Source of the DNA: Balanoglossus misakiensis
Lineage: Eukaryota; Animalia; Hemichordata
NCBI GenBank assembly: GCA_040954595.2
Contig: CM082589.2
Location: forward strand, 8,440,232 to 8,504,231
Length of the DNA stretch: 64,000 nucleotides
Reading direction: 5' to 3'
Below, one piece after another: positions 1,118 through 45,502 of this stretch (its first letter is position 1; each line of letters starts with the position of its first letter). The notes under the pieces are model-generated. The model was not told where the DNA came from, searched no databases, and saw only the letters and a list, made by a program, of their open reading frames with translations. The position numbers and the translations under genes are program-made.

Positions 1118-1905
1118 TTAAAGTCCCATGAGCTGCAACTCGATAAACAATATGCTTTAAATAATCTCGGATATGCTTTTAATTTCGTCTATTAAATGAT
1201 ATTACCTGATACTAAATACAAAAAACAAAACATTTTATTTGTGATAAAATATCAAAAAAGAAATATAAGTACAGTAAAAGATTCACGCAGTTTTAAATAA
1301 GTGAAATCTTGCAATGAAAAAAATAAAAATGTAATGTCTCTCTTGGTAAACCATACCCAATAAAGAAATGAACATGTACCGGTACATTAACTATAACGTT
1401 ATTAAGGAATTGTCCTATACAAATTTTCTTCATATTTCAGAATGGAGAAAAACAACACACTACATATTCTTGTTTTGTCTCTCGTCATGAACTGTTTTAA
1501 ACTGTTTTGTCAGGCTGAAGAATCAGGTAATTGACTTCGTATGGTGATTGGAGAGAGAGAGAGAAGGGGGGAGGGTGTTTGTGGTAGTATCGAATGCCAA
1601 ACACACCATGGCACCCACATACTACAAACTGAAAACAAACCAAAACTATATTCGCTTGCGGCAAAGCTTTATTATTTATCTGGTTAAAACTTGCATATGC
1701 ACTCATATTTAGGGTTTATAATGCTTGTGTATAGTTCACTGCCTTCATCTGCATGGACTACTGGTAGTACAGTTTGAAACTAAAATTATGATAATTATCC
1801 CAAAAGTTACAGCTTATGTGCCTTTAATGACATAATTTATTTATAATTCCATGGCGTGTGTTTGGTTTTTAATGAGCATTACTTTTGTGCATCTTTGTTT
1901 AACAG

Positions 1906-4900
1906 ATCTTAGAATGGTCTTTGTGCATGTGAACGCCATAAATGAAATCATACCATTGGATGAGCCCAGTGGACTCGTACCCGTCATTAATTACCACAAC
2001 AACGGACCGGACGACATCACTGAAGCAAACGGAACCGACCTCAACTTTAATATCAAAGCTTACCTATCCTCGGACCCCGACAAAAGAGAGACAGACGCAA
2101 CATTCGCACTATCACTGGCGTTTCTGGGACTCAACTCCCTGATCGAGGATAACCTCCGGAAAGAATTGCTCGTGCGCCATTCCCGTGGGTTCACCCTGGA
2201 AGGCGTGAACATTGAGATCCCGTCGGATTCCTGCGAACAGGTGGATTACTTCTGCGTTGAGGCCGTTTTGGTTAAGGACGGTTTCACCGACCCCGATTTG
2301 AACAACAACATATACTGCGCAAAATTCGACTTGCCCCTGCCTGTTGACTTTGACAATGACAATATAGGAATATTCAAGTGTTATATAGGTAAGCCGCGGC
2401 CACGTTACATAACATATAGACGATAGTTTAACGTTCAATATCTTCTGGCGAGATATCTGTTAAAGGCCCTTCTCAAGAGTGGGTCAAATCTGTATGTTTC
2501 CAATAAACAGTTACGTGCTAACACAAAAGATTCTTATTTACCTCCATTGTTCTGCCAGATCGAGAAAATGGCCTTATCGACTGGTCAGCATACCTTCATA
2601 AAATTAACACCTTGAATCATTTGATATTTCCAATAATTATCTTGCTAGCTTTTATTTTAAATATAAGTCTGGACTTGACACTATCGCTATCAATCTTCTA
2701 AATAAACATGATTTTCTTGATTTGGAGAAGAGAATAAAACATTGGATGGTTACACGGAATAAAACACTTAAAGCACATTTCAAAGGGTACAGCTAGCTTC
2801 CGTTCGTTTTAAATACTTATGATGGTGTTTTTTTACCCAACGATATACGCCCAAACTAAGCACTGGACGAAGTCGCCGATGAATAATCATCTTCCGCTCG
2901 CACGGGTCCTGAGCAGCTCAACTACATACCTTGGTCGAAGAAGATGATGAAAATGCACACATTTCACGGTTCAGCCGTCTGTAATAATTATACAAAGCCG
3001 CAACAATAAAGCTTATCATGGCCACCAGTTCTCCCAGAATAACGTTTGATAACTTTCTTGACAGATATTGAAAATACGAACTCTCTTGTCACCGCTCCGG
3101 CCGACATCACCTACCTCGCTGGCACCGCTGAAACTGTCACTTTTCAAAGCACCATCCAGAACAATGGCGGCATCACGTTGGACGCCCAAAGCGCCGGCAA
3201 CTTCGCCCTCAAACCGGAGGTCTACCTCACCGACAGCGGCCAGTTAGAGACCGCCACGGTCAAAGTGCTGCAAGGAGCCATCGCCCAACGCTACACCGGC
3301 GACGTGGCCCCGGATACACCCATGACATTGTCGACATTCAACGCAGACATTCTGCTGCCCACCGAAAAGGCCATCTGCTCACAGATCACCCACATCTGCG
3401 TGGTCATAACGAAGGATGTCGGCAACTACACCGATAACGACGAAGCAAACAACGACTACTGTTTGGACTTTGGCAGTGTTGCTGACGGGAAGGCTGGAGT
3501 GAAATATGGATGTCCAATAGATGGGATAGGTAAGAGAAATACAACTAACATCGTCTCACCAAACAGTCTAAAGTCAAATCAAGCTATGTGTGTGAAATCT
3601 CTACACCTATAGTTGTTTTTCGTCAGTAAGGCTGCATTCACAAACACCTCTGGAGGGGGGGAGAATTGAGGGGGGGATTTGAAAAAAATGAGGGTATGTA
3701 AGGGGGGGATTTGAAATAATTTAGGGACTGAAAGGGGGGGACTTGAAAACTTTGACGACTAAATATTTATTTTGAGTCCACAAAAATGCAGTTTCGCGCC
3801 CTTTATTTTACAAAATATTCTAATGTGGGAGGGGGACACCCCCTCCATTCATCAACACCTTTCAATCATTGACTGGTTTATCTAGTGTCCCAGGTCAGGG
3901 GATTTGCCCCCACCGCATGATAACTTTGAGCGGCGACATACCGGTAGTTGAGTTAATTTGCTTTTGCCGGGTTCATAAAAATGCAGCTTTGAGCTCTGTA
4001 TTTTATAAATTTTCTAAATTTTCCCACACCCACCCCCTTCAATTCTCGGTTTACAATGTCTCCCAACACAGAATACTTAGAAAATAAAAACAATGTTCAG
4101 TTGTAATACCCACTGATGAGGGGAAACATCAGTTTCAAATTCTATTCATGGGAGCGCTGTTTTTCTTTTTTACAAGATAGATACATGTAGGTGATGTGTT
4201 TTGCTTCGTGAAAGAAAATGGGGGGGGATTTCAAAATTTTGGCAGTTCGGAAGGGGGGGATTTGAAATATTTTGGGTTGTGTACGGGGGGCATGTGAAAA
4301 TTAGCGGTAAAAAAATTGAATTCTCCCCCCCCCCCCTCCAGAGGTGTTTGTGAATGCAGCCTAACCAAACTTTCAAATACGACGTTTCTCTCTAAAATTA
4401 GAGCTACTGTACACCACACTCAGTCAGGTAAAACAAACAAACAAACAAACATTTCGTACGCAAGTGCAGACTAGATTCCACGTATTAAGTTCGAGTACTT
4501 GTTTTAATTGCAGACTTACAGATCCAGTCATTCGAAGTTAGAGATTGGGAAACTACCATATACGATATTGGTGCTGACAATACCATCACTGTCGACGCTT
4601 TCATTGTCAACCTTGGCGATGACGCCATCTCAGCCTCCAACGGCCCAGACAATTACGACTTTGAAGTTCACCTGAGTAACCACCGCGAGGACCTCGACAC
4701 GGCCACGCTGACCGTACCCTGTGACATGGATCTGGGGGTGACCACTAACCTGAAGTCGGGCCTGGCGTACGGCGACTCCCTGGGCACCAACGGCGTCGTG
4801 GCCACGTGCACTCTACCCGCAGACTTGTGCCCGGCATACCAAAGCGTCTGTCTGAAAGTAGTGAATGGGCCGAACGCTCCCTACACGGAGATCGTGACCG

Positions 4901-6679
4901 ACAACAATGTCGTCTGCCAAGAATTTGGGGACATGATAGGAAACAAGATTTGTTCAATATTGGACATAGGTAAACCCGGCGTCAGTTGTTCACTCATTGA
5001 CAAGTAACCTTTGTTACAGCAGACCGTCACAGAAACAGAGCAATGACATCGGGGAAAAATTGTCCGCGTGATTATCAAATATGTACCAATCCCTCCTATA
5101 TCGTTTAATTAAGCAATAACCCCCGCCGCAGGCGGGTATACCCGAGATTTGGGTACAATTCGAGACATATAGCACGAGCCGTCAGGCGAGTGCTATATGG
5201 AGCAAATTGTACCCAAATCGAGTGTATACCCGACTGAGGCGGGGGGTATTGCTATTATATTATATCAACAATTGTTTTTGCTGCATATCACTGTAATTTT
5301 CTTACCGAAACGGCGTCAGAAAGAGAAATTACGATCGTGAACCAACATGGCGACGATGAATGTAAACACGAGCGGCCGGGATCCAGCCGGGATCCAGCAT
5401 TAAACATGAAGCAGACGACAAAAAGTGACAAGACAGGCATCGCGCGTGGCAAAGTGACAAATATTTCCACAGAGCAGTTAATTCAACAGTATTTTTACGC
5501 GCGACTGTGGTTTAACCGCACATTTTCACCAACGCATGCTAGTTCAGGGGCCCGTTTTAGCACTGCCAGCAGTGCATTATGAGTATTTTACAATCGCTGG
5601 ATTGAGCTCTCGTCCAATCAGAATTGCGGACGGTAGCATGATGTAATATAATGACCGATGAACACAGTTCCTTGAGTGTGAACATTTGGACAATGTAGCT
5701 CCATTAGCTGTAACCTTTGATTATGTTTTTAGGATTTCTTTCTTTTTATCCATCAAGAATGCTGAAACACTCAAGTGTTGGGCCTTGTCACAGTCATGCG
5801 TTGATATCGTGGGAAATTTTTAATTGTCAGAATTGAATTGAGCCAACAATGGTCAGTACGAATACCGAATTATTTGACAATTACAAGCGGGGGTACTATG
5901 TAATAAAATAATGCACGGATTTGCTTTTAATAAATTCTTTAATTTACCATGTGTAAAATATCTAAGGTTGTTGTTTTTCGCAGTTTGTCTGCCATTTTAG
6001 ACAGTTTGTTCTTAATTTTCTCACAGATCTCCAGCCCACCCAGGCGACCGTCACGCCATCACAGGAACCGTATCCGTTGGATACCAATGTGCCAACCGAC
6101 ATCGCTGTCCGGGTCACCAACGCCGGGCCTGGCCACCTTCCCGAGGCAGACGACTCGAACGTAAACTTTGGGGTGTCGGTCTGTCTGTCCGACGGGGAAA
6201 ACATTCAGATCATTCAAAGTCCACACCCTCCCACCATCAACGTCACTCAGCTGAAGCAAGGCCTCGACGCGGGCGGCGTCACCGACATCCTCATTTCGGC
6301 CATCGACGTCCACATTCCCGAAGACTCCTGCGAGCAGCTGCTGTATCTCTGCGTTACGGTGTCTCTGGACACGAGCAGCATTTTCACCGACATTGACCCT
6401 TCAAACGACAACCGGTGCGTGGAATTCGGTCCCACTGCCGAAGGGAAAGCCGGTGAAACAGAATGCTTTGTTGGTAAGACGTACACACACTGTACACACC
6501 TTATGTACAATTACTGGGCCCTAAGAAACGATAAAACACCTTGCAAATTCATAATACACTGTTACTATTTCCAAGTCAGGCAAGCACCAACAGACATTAT
6601 CCGAGTAAGAACTGAAGATTGGCGTCGATCATGAGTACACATCGCTCTCGCATTCTGTTCAACACGAATGTCTTTTAAC

Positions 6680-6737
<58 letters not shown>

Positions 6738-9036
6738 AATACTGTCAGACAATAATTCAAACAAAATATTTTCAGATATTAACGCCACGGCTGTTGAGGT
6801 AAGGACATCGATGGATTTGACGTACAAGCCAGGCTTCGAAACAGACATAATGATACTGCTCTCGGTCGCAAACGAAGGAGGATTGGTCGTCGACGAGGCA
6901 GAAGATGGCCATAACTTTGCTGTTGCCGTGTATCTGACAAACGATGCGGACATCAACCAGGTCACGGTTAAACTGCCGGCGGCTGTTACCAGCGACGGTT
7001 TCACCAACCGCATACCCGGCAAGCCGGACACCCTGACCTTGCCCACCATCTCGGTTAAAGTCACCATGCCAATCGTCAAGGCCACGTGCGAGGAACTGAC
7101 CCACTTCTGCGTGGAACTGACTCACGACGACGCCAAATACGTCGACGTCGATCCGAGCAATGACTTCGTCTGCATCGAATTCGGCCCAGTGGCGCAGGGA
7201 TACGCCGGCATCAAAACGTGTGACGTAAGCATAGGTAAGAGAACGTTAACATTTATCCAGGAGCCTGGATCTTTCGCAAGACCAGATTCTGAATACCCCA
7301 ATGACCGAAGCGGCACCTGGTATAAACTATGGCAGTGTCTCTAAATTCATTGCAGCTGGGCCATTGGCTGTGTCTCCAGTAACTGTGAATATGTGCAGAA
7401 TCGACACGTGACGCTTATACGTGATACCGTATTAGGATTTTTGAGTCTTGAACTTAAGGAGGATTAGGATAGTTTTGTGATAAATACGAATGTCTAAACT
7501 TATCGCAGAAAACCAAGACATATATTTTTTAAAACTTGACATCATTCTTATTTCATATTATACCTCGATGCAATTGTGAGTCAACAAGCTAATCCATACC
7601 CAGTGTGGTTTAGATAGACTCACCTTGTGTGCGAGTCGATCTCTAGCGGTTCTTCTACGGGTAAAACGTTTAATATCTATCTGTCTGTCTGTCTGTCTGT
7701 CTATCCAGCTAATTTGACTTTGGCAGATGCAGATAACACGGCGTGGCTTGGAGGTAAGTGTGTGGAAATATAAAGGAGACATGTTGGTATAATGTTCACA
7801 CCTGTTTTTTTGCTCGGCCACGGACCTTGCTGGGACAAGGTCCTAGCCTTTTTGAGTAATGTGAACGGCCTAACTGAGGCACAAAGATGTGATTTTAATA
7901 TCTTTCCATTGTGTTACAAACTTATGGTTCAAGATAAATTCCTTTGCATCACTTTTCACTGTTACCACCTACAGCAAATACATTAAACGCTGGCTGAATT
8001 CTGAAAGGACAGCAGTGGACAGCACTCATATGTGGCAAACATCTGGTTGTTATTTTCAATTCGTGACTTAAAGAGAATGTCTCGGCTAACATTTTTTTCT
8101 TTCGTTTATTAGTTATAATTGCTTCGCCGATAGTGGTTTTGGCATTAATCACCATCCCCATCGTTATCTACATTCGTCGAAGGTATAGTAAATTAAGTGC
8201 AATCTAAACATTAATCGTCGCACCAATAGCAGCAGAAAGGAAGTGCGGGCCTCACAGAATGAGTCTTTAAAATAAATGGTAATCTTGCGAACCTTTGAAT
8301 TCGTTGCTATGTTCAAATAAGAGCCATTTTGAAAACAAGGAAGAAAACTGGGCGTTCACCATCTGCATCTTGTTTTCACAAAAAACACTAACTTTAAATT
8401 CTCTCCATAGACATATACAATGTAGGTAAAACAGAGATTAGGCGGCCATTTTGAATTTCGAATTTTATAAGACAATTTGAGTCATTTTGCTCCATCGTTA
8501 ACAAGTTTGCACGATGACCCATAAATTTTATTCTCAAATAAAGAGAAAATAATCATGGTTGTCTTGCTTGAGTAAAATCTCAGAAAAATGTTAAGACTTT
8601 AAATTTTGAGGCGCATCTACCTTAAGGTGCGAAACATAGCCAAATATCTTAACACCTGCCAAAATGTACATGTATATGATAAGAGAGATAATATGTTTTT
8701 TCCTCACACAGAAACGTCATTCGAAAATCGGATGAATTTCAGAGAAACGACTACCAAAATTCTAATTCAATCGAGTTAAGCGAGAATCCCACTGAACCAC
8801 CCCGACCGGTGACTGAAACAATTTCATCCGAACACTTGTACGACACTCTAAACCATTTTGATGACGTGTATATATACACATCTCAGAATGATCGCGGTCA
8901 TGCCCACAGTATTGAGGAGCCAGATGGGGTCACAGATGATCATGAATACGCTGAACCGACCGATGAAAATAATACCTACACCGAACTCACCGATAAAGAC
9001 ATTGAATTCTACACGCATATGCAGCCACATAATTAA
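1906..9036 (+). CDS. Type-I transmembrane receptor-like protein with tandem CARDB/Ig-like Cys-containing repeats and a Tyr-motif cytoplasmic tail (5' end lies outside the window)
   Basis: AG/GT-bounded symmetric phase-1 exons at 1906-2388, 3065-3529, 4514-4969, 6027-6473 and 6776-7234 (149-161 codons each) share the pattern D[LI]..N.G..[YHC]L[ST]..P...C....[FLIV]C......[DE]...NN..C..F...G...C. They are followed by microexon 7727-7753, TM exon 8113-8182 (VIIASPIVVLALITIPIVIYIRR) and last exon 8712-9036 (YQN, LYDTL, YIYT, YAEP, YTEL, YTHM, stop). All splice phases are compatible. The CARDB-like assignment is motif-based inference. Confidence 0.8.
3630..4361. mobile_element. PIF/Harbinger-type MITE
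   Basis: TIR GGCTGCATTCACAAACACCTC(TGGAGGGGG) with a TAA target duplication on both sides. A second copy lies inverted at 13373-13984. Confidence 0.85.
5109..5651. mobile_element. Non-autonomous element with long terminal hairpin (Crypton-like architecture)
   Basis: A ~150-bp imperfect palindrome (TAAGCAATAACCCCCGCC..GGCGGGGGGTATTGCTA) at 5110-5255, then CCAATCAG near the other end. A related partial copy lies at ~52695-52945. The superfamily assignment is tentative. Confidence 0.5.
6680..6735. repeat. (ATTG)n microsatellite
   Basis: Direct reading. Confidence 0.95.
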
Positions 9037-19773: not shown

Positions 19774-27720
<7,947 letters not shown>

Positions 27721-27820
27721 GTAAGTTGCGCGTGCGAATATACCGTACAAAGAAAAGGCCCCACGTCAACGAACCAACCGATTAATGTCATCAACCAATT
27801 CATCAACCAACTACAAGCCG

Positions 27821-29220: not shown

Positions 29221-32077
29221 TTATTTACTTGTGTCGCCCTCAGTACTCTTGGCTTGATAATCTACATCAATGTACTTGTGGAATTCTCGAGCTATGTTAG
29301 CAGTCTTGACGGCTGCTTCTTCCGCTAAATCTAAAATCTTGCTGCTTAGAGCCCCATCCCCGTGACCAGTGCCCGATCCCACCAATTCACGCGACAAACC
29401 CACCCAGTGAGTATAGTTGGATAATAACTCCGAGTCCAGTACCCATCCGTTTTCCTTAGCATTATACCCAGGCTGAATTTCGACCAGGAACAGGAAGAGC
29501 TTTCCAAATTTTTTCGGGAAATCATTCCAGCCACACTTTTCGGTGATTTGCCTAAGCCCGGCGGGAACGTCACTATCTGTTACGCGAAAGAACATACTAG
29601 TGTCCCGCGACTGAGATACTGCATGGTAGTGACACTTCTCGAAGTCAGACACGCATTTATGCAATACTGCGCAGGCTGTTCGGAGCAACTGCTTTGCGCT
29701 GCTTTGGATATCATTAGAATATTCTCGGCACGAATCACCATTTGACACTTTGCTAAACACGTTCATGTAGTCACCATACAGATCTCTCACTGCTTCAATT
29801 TCAGGGGCCACGATCTCGTCTAGGTCTTCCTGTAACTGTCTAACTCTGGCATTTATTTCACTGTTATTTCCGCCACGTTTCTGTTCGAGTAATCTCAGTT
29901 TGTTGGTGATGTTGTAAGAAATTTTGGCGCAATCGCTAAACCATTCTGGTTTAAACTTCTCCTTGTCATTACAGCGTTTGAGAATTTTCAGAAGTTTCTC
30001 CGAGCCCTTCAAGGATCTGCAGTCAGCGGCCATTGCATATTCTTTTCGTGCCTTTTCAGTTTCTTCCATTTCTTCATACTGATCGCCGTTTTCAATGTGG
30101 TATAAAGCATTTTTCATCGGCTCGCTCTCTTCATCATCAGAGTATTGAACTGAGTCTAAATACTCCCTTTCTTTTGAAGCATTGTTGGTTTGGTTGAAAA
30201 GCTCTGCCAGTTTAAATGCAACAAAGTCAGTTTTCTGAACTTCGTAGGCTTTTTCGTAGTAAAAGCACGCGCTGTCCAAATGTCCCATTTCGACATAAAT
30301 CCAACCGATTAGCCTCAAAGCTTCTGCATTTTTCGGATTTGCGGATACTTCTGTTAATTTTCTCTTAAGCAAGATTTTAGCCGCTTTCTGTCCGCTGTGA
30401 CAATCCGGATAAGCTGCCAGGGCTTTCTTGAAATGATCAATTGCTTTGACCTTATCATCCTTCTTATTTAGCCTTTCTAAAAATTTTGCAATATTTAGAT
30501 GGGCATCGGAGGTCTCGAGTTTGTCATTGGCTTTGCTTAACAGTTGCCTAAATTCTTCCCTCGCGTTCTGATTGCCATTCAAACCAGCGTAGGCGTGTAC
30601 CTTATCGCGAAAAGCTGCGTACCTTGTAGGTTGAAGCTCCAATGCTTGGTCAAAATAGTCCTTGGCTTTCTGCAGAAAAAAATTCTTTTCAACCGGGACC
30701 CCTTTCTTTTTTTCAGAAATTTGTTCGTAGGCTTTACCGATCTGGTGATGAATGAATGCGGATTTTGGATCAAGTTTGAGAGCTTTCACGAAAGTATCAA
30801 GAGCTTCATCAAGCTTGTCTGTCTTGAGGAAGTGCTCGGCCACTCGTTGAACTGTTGTGACGTCATTACCGCCATCTTTGAGCGCTTTTTCATAATGAAA
30901 CGTCGCCTCCAAATCCGCTTTCCTGACGCTCAGGGCCCTCGCTAAGTGAACTCGCGCAAAGGCATTCTCGTGATTTAATTGAAGTATTTTTCGCAGCAAT
31001 GTTTCCCTTTTTAAAGCCCCCTGTTCCTGACCAAGGCACTGAAAGTTAGCATCTAGCTTGCTGAAACACAAGGCAAGACCAAGTAACCACTCTTCATTCT
31101 TTGAGAACACATTCAGAGCATTCTGGTAACGCTCTGTTGCTCGTTCGAACTTACAAGGGCCTAGCCAACTGAGAGCGAAAGCTTCATTGGCATTGATATA
31201 CGCCATAGCCTTCTTGCATTCCAAATAACCCCTCTTTCCTTCTAACTGTTCTGTGACACGCTGTGCTTCCTCTGTGTCCCCCATTAACAGCAAAACCCGT
31301 GCTTTATTGGCCAGCGTCACTATCAGATTCCCCGCGTCGGCTGCATCTCCCGCGGAAGTATCGGAAATGTCAGTAAGCGCTCTGTCAAGCCACATCAGCG
31401 CCGCCACCGGGTCTTTCTCTCCCGTTGGATTCAGAGGTGACACGCAGAGATAACCACGAAATGTTTTCGCCGGGACTGGGGACAAGTCTCCGTGGTCCTT
31501 CAAATGATTATCCAAGTAATGCACGACCCCCTGAAATTGAAGAATCCTAGATATTCACAGACTACCTGTTCAAGACCAGTTAAAGGCAATAGATCGTCTC
31601 ACGCACATGCGCGTAACTTCCCAGCAAATTTTCCGCTCGATGGCGATGTATTCAAATAGTGGACTGACTTTGCTTCTTTCCATATTTCATGCGCACCGTA
31701 TAAGTAGAATCTGGTTTTGTCCCTCCTTTTCACCCAAGCTAGTGTCTTTTCCCGATCTCCGACACAGATTATGGTCGCCGCCATCTTCTCTGTTGTTAGG
31801 ACAGAGCACTGCCTTATGAGATTAACTGTTGAGTTCACTAAACGTCTGTAACCAGCGGCTACAGCTGGAACATGTGTGTTAGACGAGCTAGGCGCTTTAA
31901 GCCGCGAAAATGTGTAGGGGCTATGGTCGAACAATTTCCCAGCCATTTTCCAACAAAAAAATGCATCTGCGTACGTACCTGTATGTCCCTGGAGAAGCCT
32001 TCTTCAAGATTCCAATGAAAGTGACAGGGGAAATCTTTCAAGATAACTTCAAGGTTCTCACCATCGCGAGTTGCCAT
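29221..32077 (-). CDS. IFIT-like TPR protein (paralog A, ~802 aa) with C-terminal extension ending in a degenerate HEPN-like domain
   Basis: Exon 32077-31979 (MATRDGENLEVILKDFPCHFHWNL, the IFIT CHFxW signature) splices in phase 0 to exon 31530-29221. IFIT-like segments run throughout: LIVTLANKARV..EEAQ, LRKILQLNHENAFARVHLA, KALKLDPKSAFIHHQIG, EALRLIGWIY..ACFYYEKA. The C-terminal domain has EIQPGY..W..ELLSNYTHW. Confidence 0.85.
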
Positions 32078-34607: not shown

Positions 34608-37076
34608 TTACATGTTATTCATGAATTCTCCAACTGTCCGGGTCGCCATGATAACCGACCAACGAGCGAGATCAACCAAATTAACAACGTGTGTGTCAGG
34701 GCCGATTTTGATTTCTTCTTCTGAACTAAGTTCTTTTCGGTGTTTGTGGCGATTGGCAATTTCAAATAGAAACCTCAGCTGGATGTTTTCGGCCTTGTGA
34801 CCTGGCTGTAAAGTAACTAAAAAATTGAATAATTCGCAGAATTTCACACGAAAGCCAATCCACTGATACTCTTTACTATGTTGGCCCTCTAATGTCCGCT
34901 GCAAGTTTATTTCCACATTCTTATCTTGTATGTAGAAAAAATTGCAATGGTGTTTCTTTGGATCCCTTGAGTAATGGTGTTCCTGAAAATCACCCATTAT
35001 TCTATCAAGTGTATTTCTTGCCTCCAGTATAACGTCGGCCGCACGACGAACTTGGTGTACATCGCCGCGGTCGTCGCCGCCTCCGTCGACGCCGGAAAAA
35101 CTGAGCAGTTCGACGTGCTTGGTGCACAAATTTTGTAGGCGTTTCGCGTGTCTCATGACAACACCGTCGAACTTGGTTTGCAGTTCCGCGTAACGCGATG
35201 CGCCGTCCTCGTCGCCGGTATGTGAACTGCAGCCCGGCGCTAAAGCTGACATCGTTTTCGATCTGAGAAGGCGCTTGACTTTGGCGCAGTCCTCGAACCA
35301 GCTGTGATCAAACATTTCACTTTCAGGACAAGAATTTAACATCTCAAGAAGGCTCAGTGATCCCTCAACACTATAAAAATCAACCGCTTTCGAAAATTCC
35401 GCCCTTGCTTCTTTCACGTTGCCGTCAGTTTTATGATCCCACCCTTTCAAACAATGGAGTCTGCCTTGCAATTTCCCATATTCCTCCACGTTGTAAGCCC
35501 GTATCTTATCTATATACTCCCTCGACTTACAAATGTTGTCCGTTTGCAAATACAAGTTTGCCAGCGCCATTTCGATACGTCGTACCTCGGTCGAATCCGA
35601 GTGCAGATACGCTTGCTCATAATAGAAACACGCACTCCCCACACACCCGCTCCTTTCATACACCCACCCCAGTAATTCAAGCGAATGCGTATCTTTATTA
35701 TTTTGAACCAACAATGTATTCAAAATCCCAATCAGTCGTTTCTCAGCCTGCGTACTAGACCAAGAATCTCTCTCGGCCCTCAGGGCTTCTTGGTATTGTA
35801 CGATTGCATCCTTGTTTTCATTTCTGTACTCTAGAAATTTTCCAAAGTAGAAATGCGCAGAGGCTTTGTCAATACTATCTTCCGTTTCAGTAAGCTCCGA
35901 ATACAGTTGGCGAGCTTTGTCGACTTCACCGCAAAGAGAGTATAAGAAAGCCCTCTCACATTTTACCACGAAATTACGTTTATCATTTTCCAAGGCCCGT
36001 TCACAATAATCAACAGCTTTGTTTACATGTAAATGATCCCGCTTCTTTGTCTTTAGAAAGCGTGATTTGTATACAAGTGCAAGCTGGTGTAGTGCGAAGA
36101 CGGATTTTGGTTCAATGGTCAGAACTTTTTCGAGAACATCGACGGCTTTCTGGAGATTATCACTCTTTTGGTGCGCCTCGCCTAAACGCTGCAACATGAT
36201 GGTGTTTCCCCCCGCCTCTTTGATTGCAAGTTGGAAATGCCAATCGGCTTCCAAGCGCGACCCCTTTTCGAGTAGTCTCCTCCCCAGAAACACCCTGGCT
36301 AAGCTATGGTTTGGGTCTAAGGCCAACAGCTTTCGCAGCAATTTCTCTTCTTTGGTGACAGCTGAGCCGGGCTTGCCCCTGTCGCCGCCTTCCCGAGTGC
36401 GGTGTTCTGTCTTGGCCACCAGCCGAGTGTAAGCATACAACCAAGCCACTTTCTCGGGGTAAACCTCAAACGCTTCCTCGTAAAGTGAGATAGCGCCCCC
36501 GAATTTCGTGGGACTGAACCACCCCATAGCAAATGCCTGGTGGGCTTTCAGATACGCCTTAGCATTGCCTGAAAGGCTGCCAAACATGTTTTTCAAACAC
36601 GAAAAGGTTTCTTGGGATTCTGATGCTCTACCCTGCTTGAATAAAATCCAGGCTTTATCCGCCAACAAGACGGCTGTGTCTCCACAGGGACCATCATCCC
36701 CAAGTTTCACCTGTTTCTTTTCTCTCTCGTTGTCTTCCAACGCTTCATTCAGCCACTTGAGAGCCTCGACTAAATCTTTTGATACAAACAGATAGGCCTT
36801 CAGGGCCTTTCCTGGTACAGGTGTCTGTTCGGGGTAATCTCTTAAATCGGCATCGATGTAGTCCATTAACTTCTGCAAGAGAGAACAACACAAAGAACAC
36901 GATATATATTTTTGTGACTACAATTTCGTGGAATTTTCTCTACTTCAACGTTTTTCAATACAGACTGTATCTGTGTACTGACATAGGCCTACCTCCGTTG
37001 TTCGGTAGCATTTGTCTTCCAAATTCCAGGTGAAATGGCACGGGTATCGCTTGAGTTCTTCCCCAACATTCAACAT
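34608..37076 (-). CDS. IFIT-like TPR protein (paralog B, ~782 aa) with C-terminal HEPN-like domain (N-R-H-K-H-R)
   Basis: Exon 37076-36993 (MLNVGEELKRYPCHFTWNL) splices in phase 0 to exon 36872-34608, at the same intron position as paralog A. IFIT-like segments include ADKAWIL, LRKLLALDPNHSLARVFLG, PKSVFALHQLA, AHFYFGKFLEY and DTHSLELLGWVY..YYEQA. The C-terminus reads EARNTLDRI..NFF..LVTLQPG..LFEIANRHKHR. Confidence 0.85.
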
Positions 37077-37154
37077 TCTGCAGGGTGGGAATAAATTGAT
37101 AACATATAAGCAGGGGTTTGGTATGGCAAGCCTCAGGGATCTTAAGTATAGCAA

Positions 37155-37713
37155 TAGTAGTATACAATGTTGAAGTAGTACGATTATATTTTGATTCGTT
37201 AATATATTATAATAAATAGTAGTATATAATGTTGAAGTAGTACGATTATATTTTGATTCGTTAATATATTATAAATAAATAGTAGTATATAATGTTGAAG
37301 TAGTACGATTATATTTTGATTCGTTAATATATTATAAATAAATAGTAGTATATAATGTTGAGGTAGTACGATTATATTTTGATTCGTTAATATATTATAA
37401 ATAAATAGTAGTATATAATGTTGAAGTAGTACGATTATATTTTGATTCGTTAATATATTATAAATAAATAGTAGTATATAATGTTGAAGTAGTACGATTA
37501 TATTTTGATTCGTTAATATATTATAAATAAATAGTAGTATATAATGTTGAAGTAGTACGATTATATTTTGATTCGTTAATATATTATAAATAAATAGTAG
37601 TATATAATGTTGAAGTAGTACGATTATATTTTGATTCGTTAATATATTATAAATAAATAGTAGTATATAATGTTGAAGTAGTACGATTATATTTTGATTC
37701 GTTAATATATTAT
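37155..37713. repeat. 63-bp minisatellite array (~9 copies), left TIR
   Basis: GTTGA(A/G)GTAGTACG recurs at 37169, 37231, 37294, 37357 ... 37672. Confidence 0.95.
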
Positions 37714-38189
37714 GATACTTTGCTAGTATTATTATTATTTACTTGTTTACAACCTTCACTTCCACCTCACCAGAGGGCGCACAATTTTTGCTGTCGGCCA
37801 TTTTCCGTGTTTTCCGTTTGTTTTGTGCGTCTCAGTCGCAGTCGAATGAGATGGACATCGAGGCAATATTGCAGGAGATAAATTTGGCAATGAGCGGGTT
37901 GAAGCTGCCACCGTTCTTTCCATGACGGAAGGGGAAATAAAGAGCTTGGGAGTTACAAGAGCAGGTGATCGAGTGCGACTCCGAAACCTTTGCAAGGAAG
38001 CAACTCAGCCGTCACCGGCCTAGCTCTGCGTACAGGTCTGTGTGTTCCCGGCGTTACACGGCCTCCACCACAGCCCTGCAAGGCGCCATAGAAAAAACTG
38101 GTGCTTCTGCGGTCCGGATCCGGACTGCAGCTTTTTCGGCCGAAATTCGATTTTATCCAAGCAAAATCCTTTACCTGTCTACTTCTGCC

Positions 38190-38403
38190 CCCTAACCGAC
38201 TCCAAATATGATGCGATTAACTTGTCCTAACGTCCGAACCGCTCGCTTTCTAAAACTTTTTTGTTTACCCATGGAGATAAACTCGCTGTAAGCTTTATAT
38301 TTAATATGGCGATCTCAACATGTAAACACACAAAAATGAATCAAACGCGAGTGGTTCGGACGTTAGGACAAGTTAATCGCATCATATTTGGAGTCGGTTA
38401 GGG
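38190..38403. mobile_element. Small hairpin MITE with ~50-bp perfect TIRs nested in the fold-back element
   Basis: CCCTAACCGACTCCAAATATGATGCGATTAACTTGTCCTAACGTCCGAACC and its exact reverse complement. Confidence 0.7.
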
Positions 38404-39099: not shown

Positions 39100-39448
39100 A
39101 TATAATCGTACTACTTCAACATTATATACTACTATTTATTTATAATATATTAACGAATCAAAATATAATCGTACTACTTCAACATAATATACTACTATTT
39201 ATTTATAATATATTAACGAATCAAAATATAATCGTACTACTTCAACATTATATACTACTATTTATTTATAATATATTAACGAATCAAAATATAATCGTAC
39301 TACTTCAACATAATATACTACTATTTATTTATAATATATTAACGAATCAAAATATAATCGTACTACTTCAACATTATATACTACTATTTATTATAATATA
39401 TTAACGAATCAAAATATAATCGTACTACTTCAACATTATATACTACTA
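39100..39448. repeat. 63-bp minisatellite array (~6 copies), right TIR, inverted
   Basis: CGTACTACTTCAAC at 39107, 39170, 39233, 39296, 39359 and 39421. Confidence 0.95.
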
Positions 39449-40119
39449 TTGCTATACTTAAGACCCCTGAGGCTTGCCATAGGTTTGGGGCACCAATCTA
39501 ATATTCTTCGATATCAAATGACGTCAGACGCGCTCAGGCGGCAGTTATGTTTGCATTCAAATTTCCAGATGACGGGCAACTTCAGCAACGTGGTCCAAAC
39601 AAAGACTGTACAGACGAAACTCTATGAGGCTGATAAGGCATTATACCTGATACATGTTACGTGTCTGGCGGTTTTACAGTAAAAACATAATCGGAAAAAC
39701 TTTTACTGGATGCCGAAATATTGCTTGCCCGTCACCTGGAAATGACGACGCCGTGGGTCACATAGCCAGATCACGTGATTGAAAGTAAAGAATTACAAAG
39801 AACCTGCCTTCATGTGTGTTATCTCTTAAACACCTTGTGACGTTGTTCAAAGGGTTCTGTGTTTGTATATTTGACTATTTAAACATGTTGAATTATACTT
39901 CAATACTTCCATCGTCCATTTTTGGTCAATACCAAAAACTATGTCGAAGTGCTATTCACATATGATGAGCATGTACATGTATGTGTATGGATGTTTACTT
40001 GCATTTCACATGATTCGAAATCGCGTCGTCTTGTGTTACTTATATACATGTAATCGTAGGCCTACACGCAGCAAGGAAGTCAGCGCACAAAATCTATCAA
40101 CATAGAGTCTTTCGCTTAC

Positions 40120-44057: not shown

Positions 44058-45502
44058 TTAAATGAGTAAGATAGATTTCAGTGCCTATATGGTGGCACGT
44101 TTCAATCGATCGCTGGTGGATGGGGTGTTTTTTCCGGGCCTCGAAGGTGGCCGATCAGCCTGGATCGCCGGGCTGGGGCATCTCGATTCTGCCGTTGCCG
44201 TAAGACAGGGGCGACACTCGGCGACCACATGACGTTTGGCGACCTATAGATTATCTTTTATCACCATCACCATCCTGTGCTAACTGATTGAGGGCGCCTC
44301 ATTGTAAGAGTCTTGTAGCGGACGGTGGGCTGTGAGACAGTCTGGAACTACTTGTATGCATTATGACTATAGGCCTATGAGGTAGTCTGTTGAAGCTTTT
44401 GGAAAGGTGATGTTAGCGAGAACGGCGAGGTTTTTGTCAAATAACTACAAACGAACTGTTTTCTTCATATTTTGATATCTGATTGTGTACGAAATATTCA
44501 CTGTATAAAAATGGTGCTGATTTCAGAAACTGCAGTCTGAATGACCTCGTAAGGCGAAATTGCCATTTGGCAACTTTTTGCCCCAAATGATCATTTTTAG
44601 AAAAGGGTTAAAAACAAACCGTTTTTTCCACATTCAGTGACCTGATGATATATGAACAGTCCATTGTGTGTTAAAAGTGGTGACGATTCCAAAAAAGCAG
44701 TGTCATTGACCCCACTCTTGACAAAAATTGCAATTTTGGCAACTGCATTGCCGTGTAACTGTGCAGTCACCGCACGCAGCTCTGTTGACGACGTACGTAC
44801 GTCACGGTGCGATCATTCAACGATCCCGAACTGGTAAACATTTCGGTTTTAGCCATTAGATTTCAGATTTTCGACGTCTCCTTCAAGTTCCATGCATGGC
44901 TCTATGCACATAACTGAAATATATACATAAATTCAGCAAAATTAAAATGGGGTCGCAAAAACTTTGCCAAAGTTTGTTGGTATAATGCATTAGCTTATAT
45001 AAATTTCTTTTTATGGTAAAGTTTGGCAAGTCTTTGTTCGGTTACTGGTAACTGTAATCCATGTCGTAGAGGGCGTCATTGACGGGAACTGTGGACGAAT
45101 CCAGGGGACGGAATCACATTATTCTCGGTACGGTCGTATGATCATTACTGCAAGTTTCTGCTCGCCGTTACTGTTCCTTATTTGTCTCACAAACACCCAA
45201 TAAATAAACCACCAAGCCATGCCAGATCTTGCAGGCAGGGTCTTGGGTTCGGAATGTTTTTAGTATTGTCTTGACTCACAATGAGTAAGCATCCATCCCT
45301 ATCATCATGACTTGGCACTTTTTGTATACCAGTGCTCACAACCGATACAAGGGCGTGGCACCCCCGTGCTTCTTACGGCACTCGTACCCAGAGAAGGTCG
45401 ACAACACTTATGTCATTGAACGCTGGGGTCATTGGATGTAAAAGAGTCACCGCAGTCTTGTTATCGATCAAGCTAGTTCGGTCTGTGAAAACTTCGAGTA
45501 AC

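Follow-up and report, generated by a model that had tools for sequence, protein, structure and literature searches.

A gene on the minus strand of the acorn-worm DNA analysed here, a stretch of 64,000 nucleotides that we call the window, raises the question of whether an IFIT-like sensor of RNA and a HEPN-type ribonuclease can share one polypeptide chain. In the literature, IFITs are described as without catalytic activity (PMC13197388) and restricted to jawed vertebrates, and TPR matches in acorn worm and lancelet were judged not to be IFITs (PMC3688568); PMC9334734 dealt with IFITM only.

The preliminary description had placed the protein at 34608..37076. Its motifs are indeed present in this span, but the gene is spliced. 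The longest stop-free frame runs from 36917 to 34608, an unspliced reading from the ATG at 37076 hits a stop after 43 codons, and the IFIT signature CHFTWNL (37040-37020) falls outside the longest frame, on a separate exon. Our splice model and tblastn place this signature in exon 2 (36993..37077, minus strand), where the tblastn alignments of the relatives P0003 and P0004 also start. From the splice signals we infer that a GT-AG intron of 120 nt in phase 0, which contains an in-frame stop (36873..36992), joins this exon to the main exon of 754 codons plus stop (34608..36872; protein P0001). P0003, from Glandiceps, aligns uninterrupted across the junction, and a tandem paralog in the window is interrupted at the same codon, by an intron of 448 nt. 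A putative first coding exon, recognised by its splice signals only, has an ATG at 37801 and a phase-2 donor (37743..37801) and would join exon 2 in frame to give an 802-aa protein. A phase-2 first intron is also described for mammalian IFITs (PMC3688568). Contamination was ruled out as the source, since the gene has spliceosomal introns and both its neighbours and its relatives are animal; the surrounding 64 kb are of animal type, intron-bearing and 38% GC.

Several repeats lie near the 5' end of the gene. A 63-bp AT-rich minisatellite (8.9 copies, 37122-37717) occupies the putative first intron, and an inverted copy with a shared flank is found 1.4-1.6 kb away (39100-39481; 5.6 copies, 99% complementary); the pair is possibly a mobile element. 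A MITE-like inverted repeat of 60 bp, whose spacer measures 94 nt (38190-38403), lies upstream of the putative first exon at a distance of about 400 bases. The ISRE-like sequence GAAANNGAAA occurs 12 times within the 64-kb window, where 5.3 matches would be expected; five of the 12 fall in GA-rich runs and none lies upstream of the putative first exon of the IFIT-HEPN gene. These matches were not counted as evidence.

The first part of the protein does follow the IFIT layout from the signature to the final helix pair, as had been proposed. Residues 1-424 of P0001 (35601..36872), continuing from exon 2, form the IFIT-like TPR region. Among natural PDB sequences, phmmer ranks IFIT5 first (E 8.6e-25, residues 32-422 vs 68-462), a score that argues against a chance match; IFIT1 comes next, and the sole PDB sequence scoring above IFIT5 is an engineered consensus TPR. 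The alignment to IFIT5 ends on the SL..LG.VY....A..YYE.A helices. A Foldseek search with the full protein model (pLDDT 88) returns IFIT5 or IFIT1 at all of ranks 1-13 over their length (E 2e-13, TM by target 0.65-0.75), followed by OGT/SPY at rmsd >11. Three relatives carry the NCBI names IFIT1-like or IFIT5-like, and a CHFTW-like motif is present in 8/8 relatives with an intact N-terminus. Compared with vertebrate IFIT5 and IFIT1 (PDB 3zgq, 4hot, 5w5h, 6c6k), the window gene is alike in this signature, in a TPR layout that it follows as far as the last helix pair, in its tandem copies and in its putative phase-2 first intron, whereas it has one additional intron and about 330 more residues, including the HEPN-like domain. 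Past the point where IFIT5 ends, residues 427-572 (35157..35594) are predicted by the full model to fold into further TPR-like helical hairpins together with linker helices, a region in which G..E(G)...L and W..DCAK patterns are conserved in relatives. Neither the window proteins nor 14 relatives gave a Pfam match to a TIR domain.

The window copy also differs from the vertebrate proteins in that most of the triphosphate-binding residues are replaced, which makes the sensing of 5'-triphosphate or cap0 RNA that had been suggested for it doubtful. PMC9677429, with its Table 5, gives K150, Y250, R253, Y254, R260, R186 and Q288 of IFIT5 as residues of high effect. The first five align to W118, I225, Q228, R229 and Q235 of P0001, R186 to K154 and Q288 to Q263, so that 2/7 are kept or conservative; the H287 position is kept as well. 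The pairing of K150 with W118 follows our own ungapped register, where HMMER placed K123 using two gaps, and R or K at the K150 position in 5/5 echinoderm-type rows backs the ungapped register. R or K occupies the R186 position in 13/13 rows, and Q the Q288 position in 11/13, which we counted in favour of the reading preferred below. In the N-terminal subdomain, the D and R of the IFIT1 segment PDLENRVLDQ, which presumably take part in RNA binding, are kept in P0004, with K and Y there in the window protein. Because the pocket has diverged, 5'-triphosphate sensing cannot be assumed for the window copy, and its ligand is probably something other than a plain 5'-triphosphate end.

The remaining domain (residues 575-754; 34611..35150) very probably has a HEPN fold, as its predicted structure suggests. 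An AlphaFold2 model of the last 180 residues (19-row alignment; pLDDT 92, pTM 0.88) starts with two long helices, followed by an insert that contains short helices; a further helix then ends in NRHKH, and a beta-hairpin and a final helix complete the domain. In the HEPN scheme given in section 7 of PMC3710099, helix 2 carries an acid, an insert separates helices 2 and 3, and Rx4-6H ends helix 3; the model agrees with it on the acid, the insert and the position of the motif. In this predicted model, whose match scores are moderate, the four-helix up-down core carries the insert between helices 2 and 3. The acid is E617 of EARNTLD in helix 2 (35004..35024), which with R619 supplies candidate acidic and basic active-site residues; a Q-P pair follows at 34808-34803, and helix 3 ends on the candidate catalytic motif NRHKHR (34737..34754), in which the polar N707 lies four residues before H711 and K710 directly precedes it.

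Among 48,161 chains searched by structure, ranks 1-8 are HEPN-type (Z 8.8-6.9), as are 16 of the top 20, the best being 1jog_A (Z 8.8, rmsd 3.0, 120 aligned); in a second structural look, ranks 1-12 are all HEPN-type chains. These labels are our own and follow the titles in part. The tool itself cautions that Z below about 13 may reflect merely a common arrangement for helical bundles, and the vinculin and p130Cas bundles, which score Z 6.5-6.8 in the same search, were counted against a HEPN assignment. The assignment, which upholds the HEPN-type domain originally suggested, rests on the ranking of matches and the motif positions, not on the Z value.

Searches for named families place the domain in none of them. 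No Pfam, NCBIfam or PADLOC model names it, Foldseek gave no match at E<=0.001, and two sequence profiles run against PDB sequences returned nothing meaningful and no link to any solved HEPN. The label 'Cthe_2314-like' is not retained, since the 13 animal domains matched nothing among Pfam HEPN families at E<=1 apart from one weak DUF4145 hit (E 0.063); the library searched presumably included the HEPN_Cthe2314 model. An Atlas lead to RiboL-PSP-HEPN clusters scored 0.86, under the Atlas bar, and the Atlas structure rows for P0006, a poor model, have TM<=0.40 throughout. A homodimer prediction of the domain, run without an alignment, gave no verdict (score 0.01).

A difference between this domain and other HEPN RNases is the missing arginine of Rx4-6H: positions 704-706 are E, I and A, and no R is conserved there in the relatives. 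Compared with HepT (8xdj/7ae2/5yep), Las1, Csm6 and RNase L's KEN domain, the domain is alike in its predicted four-helix fold and insert, in the acid in helix 2 and in the N...H ending helix 3, but has NxxKH without arginine, ExR rather than Ex3[KR], and no match to a Pfam HEPN family. HEPN families without this R exist and probably use another basic residue (PMC3710099, section 6). In the window protein, K710 and R619 may stand in for it.

The fusion is found again in other hemichordates and in echinoderms. Searching 1.84 billion representative proteins exhaustively with the domain gave 16 at E<=0.001, which shows that a word-index search with the domain alone, in which no relatives appeared, misses them; tblastn of the domain against plasmids gave no match. 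All 13/16 relatives with species names are hemichordate (Ptychodera 3, Glandiceps 2) or echinoderm (the brittle star Amphiura 5, the crinoid Anneissia 3), and a profile search added an Antedon fragment. The long relatives are TPR proteins with the same layout as the window protein, whose nearest neighbour in the tree is Ptychodera P0002 (100/100). Conservation of NxxKH, an expectation stated in advance, is borne out: the K-H pair is kept in 13/15 rows that reach the motif, and where a residue is present, N707 is kept in 12/15, K710 in 13/14 and H711 in 14/15. Farther upstream, E617 and R619 are each kept in 14/19 aligned rows. These C-terminal motifs persist among relatives that are only 20-57% identical, which likewise speaks against chance. 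K-H is missing from two rows, those of the window paralog and of Ptychodera P0005; both were left out of alignment A4 because the motif is lost, as were P0011-P0013 and P0018, which stop before it. The records of these last four all break off at one point immediately before QP, where there is probably an intron that is absent from the window gene.

The tandem paralog (minus strand, 29221..32077; exons 32077-31979 and 31530-29221) lies 2.5 kb from the IFIT-HEPN gene, has an open frame and the same architecture, and is 30% identical to P0001. In place of E-x-R, N and K it has other residues (TAC; SNYTH), with the H kept. The motif-less P0005 of Ptychodera has an accession adjacent to that of P0002 and a contig of equal length, and the tree neither pairs it with the window paralog nor makes the two orthologous. 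Several divergent copies per genome, some of them motif-less, fit an immune family. An ISRE-like GAAATTGAAA is found at 32413-32404, 330 bases before the paralog ATG. Elsewhere in the window, on the plus strand, exons at ~23800-27800, whose single exons had no Pfam match at E<=0.001, read to us like a TRPM-type channel; an exon resembling glutathione S-transferase omega, in which a CPWAHR motif occurs, lies at 45311-46748 (GST_N_2, E 5.5e-05); and serial acidic exons of ~170-200 aa at ~1836-9036, in which a C...C...D....N...C pattern recurs and which match nothing in Pfam, appear to encode a repeat extracellular protein.

The animal domain is related to a standalone prokaryotic family, which makes good the suggestion that prokaryotic relatives of NxxKH type exist. 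Searching species genomes with the degenerate pattern QP...W[LF]xx[LF]xx[LF]xNxxKH gave 101 loci (L001-L101), 57 of them in frames of at least 150 codons. An upstream motif of the type [NEH]xRxxL[DE], which lies outside the search pattern, is present in 32/57 long frames vs 5/844 background windows. The family consensus, ENLRSxLD...FP...QP...WL..L..L.N..KH, shares its motif order, spacing and final helix with the window domain, and EARNTLD aligns with ENLRSxLD; N, K and H are invariant in 43 prokaryotic relatives, which were themselves selected on that motif. A profile-profile comparison of these 43 members with the animal domain gives a probability of 97.3 (E 2e-11), a partly circular result. 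The motif-free upstream part alone, which aligns EARxxLD to NLRSxLD and CxFF to YFP, scores 21.8 (E 0.0012), compared with 14.0 for the reversed control and 21.6 for the best of 59 block shuffles, a narrow margin. At E<1e-5 the prokaryotic profile matches 12/20 animal proteins, always in the C-terminal domain, with P0001 at 0.0016. A brittle-star domain led in the Atlas to bacterial proteins without names (188-237 aa; 0.91, 180 shared features). An unrooted tree separates the 13 animal domains from the remainder by a branch with 99% support, which points to no donor.

The prokaryotic members stand alone at ~190-300 aa, with a TPR fusion in 0/57 long frames, and five of 22 viral-contig loci carry members (L103, L105, L111, L113 and L116, of prophage type). 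No Pfam HEPN, PADLOC or NCBIfam model matches the family, and the 43 members gave no match to Pfam HEPN families at E<=0.1. It has no name so far, and the full alignments of PMC3710099 may include it. In one type I restriction operon, a member is inserted between hsdM and hsdS (L001:2683-3348, minus strand), and others adjoin PARIS (L011), Shedu and a type IIG system (L021), or a reverse transcriptase (L048). Overall, defence genes are nearby in 12/32 family loci vs 7/29 controls (p 0.28), no clear enrichment; after post hoc removal of housekeeping-like matches, the counts are 7/32 vs 1/29 (p 0.055). Of the 37 family loci chosen for this test, 32 were used, and one probable family member (L061) was removed from 30 controls.

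Taken together, these observations lead us to favour a model, which we put somewhat short of an even chance, in which the IFIT clamp binds RNA and thereby aims or unlocks a variant HEPN RNase in the same chain. The C-terminal domain would itself be an active RNase, a part of the model that we consider likely. The TPR clamp would hold the RNA, and the nuclease would cut through an active site of H711, K710, N707 and R619, with catalysis by H711 and with K710 and R619 in place of the usual HEPN arginine. Dimers would form as in other HEPN RNases, and the motif-less tandem paralog would act as a non-catalytic partner or sensor. The protein would then be an innate-immune ribonuclease with an antiviral role. 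RNA cleavage triggered by foreign RNA ends, the mechanism first proposed, is weakened by the absence of the HEPN arginine and by the replacement of most IFIT5 triphosphate residues.

The diverged pocket of the hemichordate copies would be easier to understand if the TPR part held an active HEPN RNase shut until a protein cue arrived, be it a protein of viral origin, a partner in signalling or the release from the motif-less paralog. The ~150 additional helical residues between the IFIT part and the HEPN-like domain fit such a latch, as does the motif-less paralog close by, with P0005, which the tree does not make its ortholog, as a counterpart in Ptychodera. We nevertheless regard a protein cue as fairly unlikely, because the R186, H287 and Q288 positions are kept in the window copy and echinoderm-type rows hold R or K at K150 without exception.

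The missing arginine bears instead on whether the domain cuts at all. It might bind RNA or dimerise, and the protein would then sequester RNA like vertebrate IFITs. The title of the top match, 1jog, names a nucleotidyltransferase substrate-binding fold, Roquin scores in the same search, the motif is lost with the frame intact in 2/15 rows, and non-catalytic animal HEPN domains are described in PMC3710099. Against this, hemichordates, echinoderms and prokaryotes alike have kept N, K, H and the upstream R, and section 6 of that source holds that families lacking the R probably use another basic residue, so we think a non-cutting domain decidedly unlikely. A four-helix bundle unrelated to HEPN and with another function would account for the moderate Z, the blank Foldseek result and the missing sequence-profile link to a solved HEPN. 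It is very improbable in view of the HEPN-type chains that dominate the structural ranking, the motif positions that fit the HEPN scheme and the Atlas lead, itself below the bar, to RiboL-PSP-HEPN clusters.

Joining a HEPN effector to an immune recognition or repeat module has precedents. The animal fusions given in PMC3710099 are RNase L (ankyrin-kinase-KEN), the DZIP3 family (TPR, NACHT, DEATH), CXorf38 (dsRBD) and sacsin, and LA2681 is a prokaryotic fusion to TPR. Because that list already holds HEPN joined to TPR, dsRBD, NACHT and DEATH, a sensor-HEPN fusion as such is known and the IFIT version is what is new: none of the listed fusions has an IFIT module, and Pfam places the window domain in none of those families. 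No report of an IFIT-HEPN fusion was found in a literature search largely confined to journals outside subscription.

The OAS-RNase L pathway works through a second messenger, whereas the sensor part and the HEPN-like part of the window protein share one chain. A broader hypothesis, which we hold to be somewhat unlikely, is that IFITs began as, or became, one-chain sensor-effectors. RNA binding by the IFIT part would, in acorn worms and echinoderms, switch on a HEPN RNase that came from a bacterial defence family, providing an interferon-independent counterpart of OAS-RNase L that needs no second messenger, and vertebrate IFITs would be the effector-less remainder. IFITs have been regarded as non-enzymatic proteins that arose with jawed vertebrates; the conservation of an IFIT-HEPN fusion in two phyla of invertebrates would make the scaffold older and give it a candidate enzymatic output, through a HEPN-like family whose unusual NxxKH site is common to bacteria, an archaeon, viral contigs and animals.
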